Source: Candidatus Ratteibacteria bacterium (lineage in GTDB: Bacteria; Ratteibacteria; UBA8468; B48-G9; DTJG01). Taken from it: a stretch of DNA of 64,000 nt. This document shows positions 60,597-63,536 of the stretch, in pieces (the first letter of the stretch is position 1; each line of letters opens with the position of its first letter). A program made the position numbers and the translations under genes. Below the pieces are notes generated by a model that did not search any database, was not told the origin of the DNA, and worked only from the letters and a program-made list of their open reading frames with translations. Location of the stretch: NCBI GenBank assembly GCA_041656495.1, contig JBBADJ010000001.1:79382-143381 (forward strand), in the 5' to 3' direction.

Positions 60597-61495
60597 GCGC
60601 CATACTCCTCTCTTCTCCGGCAAAAATTAATCTCTTCCTTGAAATTACCGGTAGACGTTCCGATGGTTACCATACACTCTGTTCTTTGGTAGATCTTATC
60701 TCTCTCCATGATACAATTAAGCTAACTCCCGCCTCTCAATTTACGGTTTCCTTTGAAAGCCCATGGAGAATCCCCTCTGAGAATAGTGTTACAAAAACAG
60801 TTCGCCTTATTGAATCCCTTGCATCTTCAAAAGCATCTCTTCCCCGATACGCTCTTCGCATCACGAAAAGAATTCCTCCTGGAAGTGGTATGGGAGGAGG
60901 AAGCAGTAATGCGGCATCTATCTTAAAATTTTTCAATACCCATTGGAACCTCGGCCTTGATAAAAAGAGCCTGTTTCAAAGAGGCACCACTATTGGCGCC
61001 GATGTTCCTCTCTTTTTGCATGGCAGACAATCTATCATAACAGGAATCGGAGAGACCATTCATCCCTTACCCGCCCCCTTTCATCTTTCTTATCTTATTT
61101 TTGTTCCAGCCTTTGAAGTTTCTACAAAAAAAGTCTATGAGACTCTTTCTCTCAAAAATTATGTAAATTTGACAACAGCCCGCGAGAACATTACAATTTT
61201 ATTGAATTTTTTATGGAAAAACAAAATCACAGAAGCGCAGTGCCGTATGTTCAACAGACTTGAGGAGCCAAGTATGCGCGTAAGAAAGGAACTTGCGGCT
61301 ACTCGCACTATGCTCCAACAAACCTTTCATTCTCCCTTTTTTCTTACTGGAACAGGAGGCGCACTTTTTTCTATATTTCCTAATGACTATGTTCTGCCCG
61401 CAAGCCATCCTAAGGAAGTAATGTCATGGCAAAGATATGCTGCATCCAGCGAACCTTGCACCATAGACAAGGAGGAATTCAATGGAAATAACTGA
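60593..61495 (+). CDS. ispE: 4-diphosphocytidyl-2-C-methyl-D-erythritol kinase
   Basis: PAKINLFLEITGRRSDGYH N-terminus; GHMP kinase motif PPGSGMGGGSSNAA. Confidence 0.85.
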   Translation: MSAILLSSPAKINLFLEITGRRSDGYHTLCSLVDLISLHDTIKLTPASQFTVSFESPWRIPSENSVTKTVRLIESLASSKASLPRYALRITKRIPPGSGMGGGSSNAASILKFFNTHWNLGLDKKSLFQRGTTIGADVPLFLHGRQSIITGIGETIHPLPAPFHLSYLIFVPAFEVSTKKVYETLSLKNYVNLTTARENITILLNFLWKNKITEAQCRMFNRLEEPSMRVRKELAATRTMLQQTFHSPFFLTGTGGALFSIFPNDYVLPASHPKEVMSWQRYAASSEPCTIDKEEFNGNN

Positions 61496-61919
61496 AACGC
61501 GGATATCTCTGATCCACAAAGCAGACAGTCGCCTCCGGGCTTATGCATCGGTTACATTTGATCATTCTTTCGTCGTCAGAGAAATACGGATCATTGAAGG
61601 GAAAAACGGCCTTTTTGTTGCCATGCCAAGCAGAAAAACACAAAAATCTTGTATAAAATGTGGTTTTAAAAACTCTGTCAGCAATAAATTTTGCGGCAAC
61701 TGCGCAACATCAATCTCTCCTACAAAAGGAGTAAAACTTCTTGCTTCTCAGCAACATAAAGATATTGCGCATCCAATCAATACAGAATTTAGAGAGTATC
61801 TTCAGAATAAAATTTTAATAGAGTATGAAGAGCAAAAAACAACCGCACCTGTAACAACTCCCGAAGAAAGAGAAAAAACAGAAGGAATAGAAGAAATAGA
61901 AGAACAGCCCATAGAGTAG
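61482..61919 (+). CDS. spoVG: SpoVG-family nucleic-acid-binding protein containing an inserted C4 zinc-ribbon
   Basis: MEITETRISLI ... AYASVTFDHSFVVREIRIIEGKNGLFVAMPSRKT ... DIAHPIN matches the SpoVG core. A CIKCGF-x9-CGNC segment is inserted where canonical SpoVG has PDGEFR. Confidence 0.8.
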   Translation: MEITETRISLIHKADSRLRAYASVTFDHSFVVREIRIIEGKNGLFVAMPSRKTQKSCIKCGFKNSVSNKFCGNCATSISPTKGVKLLASQQHKDIAHPINTEFREYLQNKILIEYEEQKTTAPVTTPEEREKTEGIEEIEEQPIE

Positions 61920-61940
61920 GGGGCTGATTCTAAAACAGGA

Positions 61941-62011
61941 TGCCCGGTGGTGTAATGGTAACACACCGGTCTTTGGAGCCGTGGTTCGAGGTTCGAATCC
62001 TCGCCGGGCAG
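61941..62011 (+). tRNA. tRNA-Gln (anticodon UUG)
   Basis: Manual fold: acceptor TGCCCGG/CCGGGCA with U1-A72 as in bacterial tRNA-Gln; D-arm GTGT/ACAC; anticodon loop CTTTGGA (U33, anticodon TTG, G37); T-arm CGAGG-TTCGAAT-CCTCG; discriminator G; CCA not encoded. Confidence 0.8.
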
Positions 62012-62760
62012 CATATATATATATATTACTTCTTCTGAGAGAGGATTCGAAAGGAGCGAAGTGGAAAGATTGCGAGTGAGCGCAGCAATCTTCGCGAATG
62101 GCCGACCCCGAACGTTCCGAAAGTGAGGGGCGCCGATCCTCGCCGGGCAGCATATATATATATATATTACTTCTTCTGAGAGAGGATTCGAAAGGAGCGA
62201 AGTGGAAAGATTGCGAGTGAGCGCAGCAATCTTCGCGAATGGCCGACCCCGAACGTTCCGAAAGTGAGGGGCAGCTGATCCTCGCCGGGCAGCATATATA
62301 TATATATATTACTTCTTCTGAGAGAGGATTCGAAAGGAGCGAAGTGGAAAGATTGCGAGCGAGCGCAGCAATCTTCGCGAATGGCCGACCCCGAACGTTC
62401 CGAAAGTGAGGGGCGCCGATCCTCGCGGAGCAGCATATATATATATATATTACTTCTTCTGAGAGAGGATTCGAAGAGAACGAAGTCAGGCAATCCGACG
62501 AAGAGGCAGGATTGCCAGCGAGTGGCCGACCTGAGCCGTATCGAAAACCGAGGCTTGTTTGTAACTTACATACCACACCCGGTATAACTTGAGCCGAGGT
62601 GGTGCGTCATACCAAACTTAACATGACGGTGAAGCACCAGGCAAGGCGCCGCACCTACGACCACTCTTCTTTGGAATTCCTTTGGAAGAGGATGTGCGTA
62701 ACGTATTTCAGCCGCACAATCCTCGCGGAGCAGCATATATATATTACTTTTCCTCACCAC
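61997..62760 (+). repeat. Tandem array of 139-142-bp direct repeats, each beginning with the 17-nt 3' end of tRNA-Gln (ATCCTCGCCGGGCAGCA) followed by a variable (AT)5-8 tract. Four tandem copies and one distal copy
   Basis: 17-mer copies at 61997, 62136, 62278, 62419 (variant CGCGGAGCAG) and 62719. The unit body is near-identical and contains the palindromes TTCGAA, TTCGCGAA and GAACGTTC. Confidence 0.85.
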
Positions 62761-62783
62761 CAACCTTATATAGGCAGAGAAAA

Positions 62784-63536
62784 ATGAACGAACCCTTAGG
62801 AATAGTAATACTTGCGGCAGGAAAAGGAAAACGGCTTGGAGGACAAAAACAAAAAACCATCCAAAAACTTCAGAATAAAAGCCTCCTTCACTATCTCTTT
62901 GACACCATTCTACAGCTTCATCCTGAAAAAATCGTGGTCGTTGTTGGCCACAAAAAAGAGGATGTAATAGAAGAACTAAAAGGGTTTCCCGTTATCTTCG
63001 TAGAACAGACAGAACTTGCGGGAACCGGAAATGCGGTTCTTATAACTCGCCTCGCATTTGAGAACTTTTCAGGAACCATTCTTGTCATGTGCGGAGATAC
63101 TCCATTTCTTTCCACTGAAACATTGCGAAACCTTCGCACAACCCATATCAATAGCAATGCATCCTGCACTATTCTTACCGCCAAAGTAGAAGAACCAAAA
63201 GGATATGGGAGAATAGCACGAAACGATTTAGGCGGCATTGTCCGTATCGTAGAAGAATTGAATGCCACTGAAAAAGAAAGGGAAATTAATGAGATCAATA
63301 CAGGAGTGTACCTCTTTAAGGCTCAAGATCTCTTCTTCTTCCTTCCCCAAATAGAGCGCAATCCACTCAAACAAGAATATTATCTTACTGATATTGTGGA
63401 ACTTATGAGCAATGCGGGAAAGACCATCACAACCTGCATCACATCTTCTCCGGAAGAAACTCTTGGCATTAATACCTTGGAAGATTTACAGAAAGCAGAA
63501 ACGTACCTTCGCAAAAAAAAGGCGGTGAACCCATGA
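62784..63536 (+). CDS. glmU: Sugar-1-phosphate nucleotidyltransferase corresponding to the GlmU N-terminal (uridyltransferase) domain only; the LbH acetyltransferase domain is absent
   Basis: [13 protein letters not shown] nucleotide-binding motif, about 250 aa, ending before any hexapeptide-repeat region; ATGA overlap with prs. Confidence 0.7.

Follow-up and report, generated by a model that had tools for sequence, protein, structure and literature searches.

Tandem structured modules behind tRNA-Gln in a Ratteibacteria lineage resemble the RtT repeats of E. coli in design

To our knowledge, the RtT element behind E. coli tRNA-Tyr has stood alone as a curiosity since the late 1970s, and neither an origin nor a function has been accepted for it; we know of no place other than E. 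coli tyrT/RtT where a design of direct and inverted copies of the repeats' own tRNA was previously described. At tyrT/tyrV, a 178-bp unit is repeated 3.1 times, every repeat closes with the 3' end of tRNA-Tyr, and the array is annotated as the ncRNA rttR. The E. coli units score 133-137 bits against Rfam RtT (RF00391; gathering score 45 bits), and in the tyrT repeats GGGGAAGGAT is the reverse complement of ATCCTTCCCC (10 nt), the two pairing in the helix that closes the Rfam RtT consensus structure. Functional RNAs can also come from tRNA trailers without repeats, and 3'ETS-leuZ in E. coli is said to be a sponge for RyhB and RybB. RNAs of this type, from tRNA 3' external transcribed spacers, are mentioned in PMC6191717.

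Here we analyse a repeat array behind tRNA-Gln in a 64-kb window (the whole stretch of DNA studied) from a Candidatus Ratteibacteria MAG. An earlier note on this DNA knew of no described element class that matched the array, a view that the matching design of the tyrT/tyrV repeats overturns. Among the options it listed, small-RNA modules are the best supported.

Anatomy and structure of the array

All positions are those of the window and all features lie on the + strand. The tRNA-Gln(UUG) gene was placed at 61941..62012 by ARAGORN (TTG anticodon) and by Rfam (tRNA, 62 bits), in agreement with the earlier note. Upstream lies the operon gene spoVG (61482..61919; from the ORF list, with Pfam SpoVG on an identical protein), and downstream follow three units of ~141 bp and a diverged one of 300 bp, an array of ~770 bp in total. 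At each unit boundary the tRNA 3' end is present as a 17-nt copy followed by (TA)n, and the 17-mers start at 61997, 62136, 62278, 62419 and 62719, where 100 shuffles gave none. Their spacings are 139, 142 and 141, as previously reported, and then 300; TRF returned a period of 141 with 3.5 copies and 96% matches. Several details of the earlier description needed correction. All five 17-mer positions were right, but only three copies are exact (ATCCTCGCCGGGCAGCA), the last two sharing two substitutions (ATCCTCGCGGAGCAGCA). The (AT)n tracts behind the five copies have 6, 7, 7, 7 and 4 repeats, and across copies and strains (TA)n ranges from 2 to 7. The three palindromes TTCGAA, TTCGCGAA and GAACGTTC are indeed in every short unit, and the near-identity of the repeat bodies applies to the three short units but not to the fourth, in which homology is confined to the first ~100 nt and is diverged.

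Within a unit, a short linker is followed by an inverted tRNA copy, a ~81-nt conserved core and a direct tRNA copy. The segments copied are nt 54-64 of the tRNA (TTCGAATCCTC; T-loop and T-stem 3' strand), present as an exact reverse complement, and the last 17 nt. The direct copy spans T-loop nt 59 to two bases beyond the discriminator; like the repeats at integrase att sites, it has its start in the T-loop, and the note was correct to see the tRNA 3' end as the seed of the repeats. The first 17-mer (61997..62013) is the genuine tRNA 3' end. Linker 1 (62013..62040), which is (AT)6 A followed by TTACTTCTTCTGAGA, is AU-rich and a putative endonuclease site; it recurs at 62152-62181, 62294-62323 and 62435-62464. 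The inverted copy GAGGATTCGAA, which matches tRNA nt 54-64 in exact reverse complement, lies at 62041..62051 and again at 62182-62192, 62324-62334 and 62465-62475. The short units, told apart by private SNPs or indels, have the cores S1 (62054..62134; 103 bits with our covariance model R1, and supported by pair counts), S2 (62195..62275; 93 bits, its 3' end being GGGGCAGCTG in place of GGGGCGCCG) and S3 (62337..62417; 103 bits, with P2 loop GAGCGAGC). They are closed by 17-mer copies 2 (62136..62152, exact), 3 (62278..62294, exact) and 4 (62419..62435, the ATCCTCGCGGAGCAGCA variant), respectively.

The long unit has a diverged core at 62478..62557 (50 bits with R1, and by alignment) with a b-type P2, GGCAATCC...GGATTGCC, and an altered P3, then ~160 nt found in this unit only (62558..62718) and 17-mer copy 5 (62719..62735, ATCCTCGCGGAGCAGCA again). 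That copy, placed by the earlier note directly before glmU, ends 50 nt ahead of the ATG at 62786. The tail in between (62736..62785) reads (TA)4, TTACTT and TTCCTCACCACCAACC-TTATATAGGC, and its last part is homologous to the tRNA-3'-like end and linker of a unit in a strain variant (L129), so the tail looks like the remnant of an older unit, now probably serving as the glmU leader. The glmU-like gene (62786..63536), which has an NTP_transferase domain only, and prs are the downstream operon genes.

The repeated entity is a ~95-nt module of three helices. P1 pairs the inverted copy of tRNA nt 54-64 (5' strand, 62041..62051 in S1) with the direct 3'-end copy (3' strand, 62136..62152) and closes the module; since this complementarity is automatic if both flanks are copied from the tRNA, it is no independent evidence of selection for pairing. 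In S1, the P2 arms lie at 62066-62073 and 62085-62092, and P3, with a tandem GA/GA internal loop, at 62100-62134. P2 occurs as a-type (AAGATTGC/GCAATCTT) and b-type (GGCAATCC/GGATTGCC) alleles, between which five of eight pairs are changed on both sides and none is broken; these sequences were compared by eye because the covariance-model alignment left the P2 alleles out of register. P3 is 92-97% paired, and compensatory CG<->UA and AU<->CG changes flank the conserved GA/GA loop. On the alignment used, none of 500 shuffles reached the observed covariation score and slid controls collapsed, with the covariation resting on few alleles in related sequences. The comparison of alleles thus indicates that P2 and P3 pairing is kept through compensatory changes. 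Minimum free energy (MFE) z-scores were not significant for single a-type units; they were -2 to -2.8 for b-type units and the long unit, and the whole 300-bp unit folds somewhat better than shuffles (z = -2.7).

Insertion site, strain variation and other tRNA loci

In relatives the gene order tsaB-GT-lepB-grpE-ispE-spoVG-tRNAGln-glmU-prs is kept in seven loci. In these loci the spoVG-glmU gap is 98 bp and tRNA-Gln ends 15 nt before the glmU ATG. The array is therefore a lineage-specific insertion. The gene-order interruption of the earlier note stands for the array, but not for tRNA-Gln itself, which is ancestral between spoVG and glmU in the clade.

Independent ENA, JGI and Logan assemblies contain the same units, so the array is not an artefact of one assembly. 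They hold one, two or three short units, a count that short-read collapse could also produce, and copy number may vary accordingly. Composition differs between strains: a strain of 92-94% identity has its own version of the array, and the tRNA-Gln array of L129 is a mosaic in which units end in the 3' ends of other tRNAs (ATTCCTCACCGCCCACA and ACTCCCTTCCCCGGCAC). A GlmU profile search of genome contigs, in which the matches listed were from distant phyla only, found a MAG (L034) with a different, REP-like repeat set in the equivalent spacer.

The spurious antisense ORF over the array served as the query to find further arrays, and the same core was found at three tRNA loci, with flanks that match the respective tRNA exactly; the inverted copies are exact, 11-12 nt long, at all three. 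At locus L136, two modules lie behind tRNA-His, and the core of the first is 97% identical to S1. They end in ATCCCCTCACCCACCCA, the tRNA-His 3' end, and are preceded by AGGGGATTTGAA, the reverse complement of TTCAAATCCCCT. A degenerate module with the tRNA-His 17-mer lies 3.9 kb downstream, and the block so bracketed, containing AbiE, DUF454 and catalase genes, resembles an island with att repeats at its ends. At locus L176, a class-II-like tRNA (tRNA-X) is followed by three modules with the direct repeat CAACTCCCTTCCCCGGCAC and the inverted copy AGGGAGTTGAA, and an IS110-like fragment lies 5 kb from the array. The linkers at the His and X loci (AAAAGTTTTCCTTC, TACTCTTCTGTGT) have no TA tract, and the modules are the same as at the Gln locus. 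All 14 modules recovered with R1 lie directly 3' of tRNAs or within such arrays. The core was not found elsewhere in the 64-kb window or in ~125 kb of further loci examined, and dispersed copies lacking tRNA linkage, which would have spoken for an ordinary repeat family, were likewise absent there. An exact 19-mer scan of JGI metagenomes returned the Gln locus only. Viral contigs scanned with the 17-mer plus TATA, a 16-mer and a core motif gave nothing or chance matches, and BLAST against phages and plasmids gave no match. The modules are therefore a small family located 3' of several tRNA genes in this Ratteibacteria lineage.

Possible origins and expression of the array

On balance we lean towards reading the array as tandem structured ~95-nt tRNA-linked modules of an RtT-like trailer RNA, co-transcribed with the tRNA, cut in the linkers and expanded by recombination. 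We infer trailer transcription and processing purely from the geometry of the operon. Because glmU starts 15 nt past the tRNA in relatives, glmU-prs is probably read through from upstream, and the array would thus be transcribed as the trailer of tRNA-Gln and the leader of glmU in one transcript. A scan of the array found no terminator-like site on the + strand and no sigma-70 consensus (nothing above shuffles). tRNA-precursor endonucleases would cut the AU-rich (UA)n linkers after every tRNA-like 3' end, which would free the tRNA and the glmU-prs mRNA along with module RNAs of ~125 nt. Copy number would shift when the ~57-nt blocks common to the units, each made up of a 17-mer, (TA)n and linker, cross over unequally, and recombination inside the conserved core could shuffle units between tRNA loci.

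The main rival, which we consider unlikely, is a stack of att scars left by tyrosine-integrase elements that cross over in the T-loop and inserted repeatedly at tRNA-Gln, tRNA-His and tRNA-X, each unit being an attP leftover or a trans-mobilised mini-element. In its mapping, the P' arm corresponds to the linker and the P arm to the module, the element body being lost. Here the direct repeat from the T-loop to the tRNA 3' end is the classical att identity block, and arrays accrete beside tRNA genes as such elements do. The array is also lineage-specific and strain-variable, with a copy number that varies between assemblies (where collapse may contribute). The tRNA-His and tRNA-X arrays are followed by accessory genes (AbiEi/AbiEii, catalase and the IS110-like fragment), and at L136 the module remnant with the tRNA-His 17-mer closes the 3.9-kb gene block. 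A search for an integrase was negative: neither a tyrosine-recombinase box-II-like motif (a heuristic search) nor Phage_integrase in precomputed Pfam annotation was found in the window, L136 or L176, and there was no viral-contig, phage or plasmid match. Repeated insertion at one tRNA does not predict the mixed tRNA ends of the L129 tRNA-Gln array. The exact inverted copy of nt 54-64 is 15-30 bp away from the direct copy, and the core separates it from its pairing partner, which is not the C-O-C' layout of a core site, and att arms predict neither an inverted copy nor compensatory changes in P2 and P3. The same design is found at E. coli tyrT with no associated integrative element.

Quite unlikely, in our judgement, is that the tRNA-matching segments (11-12 nt antisense, 17-19 nt sense) are programmable parts of a mobile RNA module, rewritten for each host tRNA by templated copying, whose RNAs act on the cognate tRNA or its enzymes. 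Such RNAs may be acceptor-end mimics or decoys for tRNA-3'-end-modifying toxins, and AbiEii/MenT nucleotidyltransferases adjoin two of the three arrays. Alternatively, they may switch precursor folding; in the predicted MFE fold of the tRNA with one unit, the T-arm pairs with the antisense copy. If this were true, E. coli RtT would belong to the same class, by convergence or as a very distant member.

We attach little credence to the view that each unit is an independent sRNA gene, with (TA)n as promoter or -10 element and the RNA ending at the tRNA-like 3' stem. TA-rich tracts do precede every unit and glmU, and the modules are structured, but the array contains neither a sigma-70-type promoter consensus nor + strand terminators. 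The same modules follow the TA-free linkers of the His and X loci, and (TA)n lengths of 2 to 7 would disturb a fixed -10/-35 geometry.

A non-autonomous ssDNA transposon (an IS200/IS605-type PATE or REP-like element with P2 and P3 as subterminal hairpins, inserting after T(C/T)GAA in T-loop-like hairpins) is highly improbable. It would account for two hairpins close to the core ends, for a left junction that always follows TCGAA or TTGAA, for TTAC, the IS608 target, in the Gln linker, and for another REP-like repeat in the same spacer of MAG L034. The core, however, is only in tRNA-linked arrays (64-kb window, ~125 kb of further loci, JGI 19-mer scan), and no HUH transposase or TnpB was seen near any array. 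The supposed target is not a tRNA gene, because on the left the core is flanked by the tRNA 3' half, copied in inverted orientation, and not by the true T-stem 5' strand.

Repeat expansion or chimerism in a short-read MAG, a possibility that the earlier note had raised and that could explain why several contigs break within the array and why one, two or three short units appear depending on the assembly, is largely refuted and can hardly be credited, since the private SNPs and indels of the three short units recur in the same order in independent JGI contigs, complete arrays with both flanking genes are present in ENA, JGI and NCBI/GEM assemblies, and the 92-94%-identical strain carries its own version.

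Several other readings were rejected. Protein coding is contradicted by a stop in a-type P2 in the frame that matches the SD-preceded 41-codon frame of L129 module 2, and P2 changes compensate pairing, not coding. The antisense ORF of 253 aa, which overlaps both spoVG and the tRNA, has no Pfam match and is spurious. A MITE with terminal inverted repeats does not fit inverted repeats that are tRNA-derived and change with the tRNA. For hammerhead and other self-cleaving ribozymes, IS110 bridge RNA, TnpB omega-RNA with a 17-nt guide, integron attC and permuted or split tRNA, the defining partner gene or motif is absent. Type III toxin-antitoxin (ToxI-like) arrays were also rejected: the Gln array precedes glmU, not an endoribonuclease toxin gene; at L136 the array and the AbiE genes converge; and at L176, the only locus where they are co-oriented, AbiEii is a nucleotidyltransferase and not a ToxN-type RNase.

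Comparison with known systems

REP/BIME and MITE repeats are, like these modules, short, hairpin-forming and tandemly clustered in intergenic regions, but they are dispersed at many loci without tRNA-derived flanks, whereas the core here is found only behind tRNAs. Integrase att islands of the T-loop class share the direct repeat and the accessory genes close by at two module loci; the present arrays differ from them in having 125-141-bp units, an inverted tRNA copy, covarying hairpins and mixed tRNA ends in one array. With 3'ETS-leuZ the modules would share the release of a functional RNA from a tRNA trailer by precursor processing, as far as the operon geometry suggests; 3'ETS-leuZ is a single short spacer without repeats or a tRNA-end copy.

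The likeness to RtT is one of design and not demonstrated homology, because covariance-model and pairwise tests fail. An Rfam scan of the array returned tRNA only, with no RtT match at E <= 10, and pairwise alignment of an array unit to an RtT unit scored no better than shuffles; sequence homology was rejected on these grounds. The host here is a candidate phylum and there Enterobacteria. Our family serves three or more tRNAs, its flanks matching each of them, and its arrays can be mosaic. Its inverted copy covers the T-loop and T-stem (nt 54-64) and that of RtT the T-stem and part of the acceptor strand. The array here sits inside an operon upstream of essential genes, with no tpr-like ORF and no encoded CCA.

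Arrays of this kind matter for MAG annotation because they break short-read contigs and yield spurious antisense ORFs (P0126-P0132). Their several tRNAs, mosaic arrays and strain variants also offer a comparative case for testing the mechanism and any function. In both RtT and the present array, tandem units lie directly 3' of a tRNA gene, within the tRNA trailer: 3.1 repeats of 178 bp in E. coli, and three of 141 bp with a long unit behind tRNA-Gln. The units end in a copy of the tRNA 3' end that starts in the T-loop and measures 19 nt in E. coli and 17 nt in the Gln array, and an upstream inverted copy forms a closing helix around internal hairpins. The same design, a direct copy and an inverted copy closing a structured core, now turns up in an uncultured phylum far from E. 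coli, in a sequence family that is unrelated. Its recurrence there, at three or more tRNAs, argues for tRNA-linked repeats as a class that arises repeatedly and whose generating mechanism can be defined.

A tandem repeat array behind tRNA-Gln

The tRNA-Gln(UUG) gene lies at 61941-62012 on the + strand (ARAGORN and Rfam) and is the sole tRNA in the window. The earlier note had described it as followed by tandem repeats seeded by its 3' end, and this was confirmed using ARAGORN, Rfam, TRF and a 17-mer search against shuffled sequence. The last 17 nt of the tRNA, ATCCTCGCCGGGCAGCA, occur again at 62136 and 62278. All five copies claimed were present, compared to none in shuffles, although the last two (62419 and 62719) are a variant with two substitutions, ATCCTCGCGGAGCAGCA. 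Each copy is followed directly by (AT)4-7 and TTACTT, and the three palindromes that had been named were found in every short unit. TRF reported a period of 141 bp (3.5 copies, 96% identity). The spacings of 139, 142 and 141 bp between successive 17-mers stood, but a fourth unit of 300 bp had gone unnoticed. Its homology to the short units is diverged and limited to the first ~100 nt; the extra ~160 nt (62558-62718) form local hairpins, e.g. GAGGATGTGCG...CGCACAATCCTC, and had no homologue among the other units or databases searched. No further array-like sequence was found in the rest of the 64-kb window, either by similarity comparison or using R1, a covariance model of the hairpins P2 and P3 (see below).

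Complete arrays from spoVG to glmU were found in independent assemblies of this species. These have the long unit in every case, joined by one short unit in L001 and L137 and by two in L110, compared to three in the window; some other contigs begin or end within the array. Private differences set the three short units apart (T/C in the P2 loop; a 3' end of CGCCG or CAGCTG), and the units recur in the same order in JGI contigs. The array is thus real and not an assembly artefact. The differing number of short units fits true copy-number variation and short-read assembly collapse alike, and the two cannot be separated.

In a strain 92-94% identical to the window (L109/L124) the array has two units, one of which joins the first hairpin of the long unit to the second hairpin of a short unit, so units recombine with each other. 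Another contig of this strain (L129) carries modules behind tRNA-Gln with the same ~81-nt core and other flanks; consecutive modules end in ATTCCTCACCGCCCACA and ACTCCCTTCCCCGGCAC, both laid out like a tRNA 3' end (2 nt of T-loop, 5 of T-stem and 7 of acceptor, then the discriminator and 2 more). The tail ahead of glmU in the window (TTCCTCACCACCAACC-TTATATAGGC) is homologous to the ATTCCTCACCGCCCACA end plus its linker and, on that homology, looks to be the remnant of an old unit.

The antisense strand of the array (61815-62576, - strand) is open in several frames and public pipelines call a protein there; none of the predicted proteins P0126-P0132 from such ORFs matched Pfam. Spurious as they are, these ORFs can serve to locate related arrays, and P0132 stands for one further array.

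Module flanks and core at three tRNA loci

Protein searches using the antisense ORF as the query located arrays behind other tRNAs. On L136, a contig whose sample also yielded a 297-kb contig of the window's species, two modules stand behind tRNA-His(GUG). One, next to the tRNA, has a core 97% identical to that of the first short unit (S1) and the other carries the second P2 allele; both end in the 17-nt tRNA-His 3' end, ATCCCCTCACCCACCCA. On L176, three modules, each ending in CAACTCCCTTCCCCGGCAC, follow a tRNA (X) whose long variable arm and A73 suggest that it is Leu-like.

At all three loci (3/3, by script) the core is directly preceded by 11-12 nt that match, in exact reverse complement, the T-loop and T-stem 3' strand of the local tRNA: TTCGAATCCTC in the tRNA and GAGGATTCGAA as the inverted copy for Gln, TTCAAATCCCCT and AGGGGATTTGAA for His, and TTCAACTCCCT and AGGGAGTTGAA for X. 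These nucleotides do not copy the T-stem 5' strand. P1, the closing helix of 8-10 bp, forms between the inverted copy and the direct copy at the module 3' end.

Within the core, the P2 hairpin has 8 bp and a loop of 11-12 nt, and comes in two alleles, a (AAGATTGC and GCAATCTT around GAGYGRGCGCA) and b (GGCAATCC and GGATTGCC around GACGAAGAGGCA), both present at the Gln locus and at the His locus. With the pairs counted from the 3' arm, five are changed on both sides, three are the same and none is broken. The outer stem of P3 carries two bulges; a middle stem follows, then a conserved symmetric GA/GA internal loop and an inner stem capped by a loop of 9 nt. Double changes (CG<->UA and AU<->CG) occur in the middle and inner stems. 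P3 cells were 92-97% paired, falling to 34-51% when partners were slid by 1-3 columns, and 0/500 shuffles reached the observed covariation score on the alignment used. R1, which covers P2 and P3, found 14 modules in the loci searched, all within tRNA-linked arrays, and gave no match in the relatives' loci or the E. coli tyrT locus. Thermodynamic support for the predicted fold is modest: b-type units and the long unit had folding z-scores between -2 and -2.8, and the z-scores of a-type units were not significant. In the minimum free energy structure of tRNA-Gln plus unit 1 (61941-62152) the inverted copy is paired to the T-loop/T-stem 3' strand, and the distal 17-mer to the tRNA 5' acceptor strand. 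The precursor could take this fold as an alternative to the cloverleaf; folding during transcription would favour the cloverleaf.

AbiEi/AbiEii toxin-antitoxin pairs adjoin the tRNA-His array (two pairs; L136 1-1007 and 3913-4981) and the tRNA-X array (L176 4359-5670). DUF1814 nucleotidyltransferase toxins of the AbiEii family modify tRNA 3' acceptor ends (PMC7450476, PMC10435456); a link between AbiE toxins and arrays of tRNA-3'-end mimics is speculative. At a distance of 3.9 kb downstream from the tRNA-His array there is a degenerate module with the tRNA-His 17-mer (L136 1075-1180, - strand); the array and this module bracket AbiE, DUF454 and catalase genes, resembling an island with att-repeat borders.

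Operon context and transcription

The order tsaB-glycosyltransferase-lepB-grpE-ispE-spoVG-tRNAGln-glmU-prs is kept in relatives, where the spoVG-glmU gap was 98 bp in all loci examined and tRNA-Gln ends about 15 nt from the glmU start codon. The array had been said to interrupt the gene order; since relatives carry the tRNA in the same gap, the tRNA is ancestral there and only ~770 bp (62013 to 62785) are new. The relatives' gap is too small for a promoter, so glmU-prs must be read through the tRNA, and we infer + strand transcription of the array; a scan of that strand found no terminator-like or sigma-70-like site.

The downstream protein (62786-63536) is a 250-aa GlmU homologue with the NTP-transferase domain only (nearest relatives ~55% identical), and public MAGs carry it under the annotation Candidatus Ratteibacteria. 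It has the N-terminal nucleotidyltransferase domain alone, with no LbH acetyltransferase part, and its gene overlaps prs by 4 nt; a length of about 250 aa is common to most of its closest homologues. SpoVG (61482-61919; 145 aa, versus 128-133 aa in close relatives) has a CxxC...CxxC zinc-ribbon-like insert (KCGFKNSVSNKFCGNC), with a faint DZR hit in one relative, and an acidic C-terminal tail whose coding sequence is a tandem repeat of 9 bp (GAAGAAATA x 4.7, 61863-61904). In an Omnitrophota MAG (L034 3683-3860) another insert occupies this tRNA-Gln/glmU spacer, with four REP-like copies of GTAGCGGTGCAATTCATTGCAC and an inverted partner. The spacer looks like a hot spot for repeats that form hairpins.

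Competing readings and comparison with E. coli RtT

The earlier note's observation was confirmed and its interpretation partly supported. Its reading of the units as remnants of integrase-mediated insertion at tRNA genes is consistent with the direct repeat's register, with accessory genes adjoining two arrays (L136 and L176), and with the module remnant and tRNA-His 17-mer that close the 3.9-kb block of AbiE, DUF454 and catalase genes. However, no integrase was seen in the 64-kb window, L136 or L176 (heuristic motif scan, precomputed Pfam), and this reading fails on the mosaic arrays (L129), the inverted tRNA copy in each unit and the RNA-like covariation, including the conserved tandem GA loop. 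Other readings fared worse: the TA tracts are unlikely to act as independent promoters, since linkers at the His and X loci lack such tracts, and a single-stranded DNA transposon fits neither the confinement of modules to tRNA-linked arrays nor the lack of a transposase near them.

An RtT-like tRNA-trailer RNA module is therefore favoured, in line with the small-RNA option that had also been raised; the inverted tRNA copy and the P2/P3 covariation support it. The module would be co-transcribed with the tRNA and may be excised at AU-rich linkers. Units could have been amplified via unequal crossing-over between the ~57-nt blocks common to them, and shuffled among tRNA loci through recombination in the conserved core.

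In E. coli, the tyrT operon reportedly carries a 178-bp unit x 3.14, which starts inside the tRNA-Tyr 3' end and yields rtT RNA (Egan & Landy 1978; Rossi et al. 1981; Bosl & Kersten 1991). In NC_000913.3, examined as a check, a 178-bp unit is repeated 3.1 times behind tyrV (95% identity) in a region annotated as the ncRNA rttR and tpr, and AATCCTTCCCCCACCACCA ends every unit. Rfam RF00391 matched four E. coli units at 133-137 bits, and in its consensus closing helix GGGGAAGGAU pairs with AUCCUUCCCC, so that an inverted copy meets the copy of the tRNA end. According to a recent summary, rtT RNA takes part in processing the tyrT transcript and may act in the stringent response, its mode of action being unknown (bioRxiv preprint 10.1101/2024.07.17.603846). 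RF00391 gave no match to the array in an Rfam scan, the alignment of array and RtT unit scored inside the shuffle distribution and R1 did not match at tyrT; on this basis the sequence family appears distinct. The design, which the earlier note could assign to no known class, is nevertheless that of the E. coli repeats: in both, tandem units behind a tRNA each end in a copy of the tRNA 3' end, and an inverted copy paired to it closes the RNA. An orphan oddity of E. coli thus becomes a recurrent class open to comparative study.
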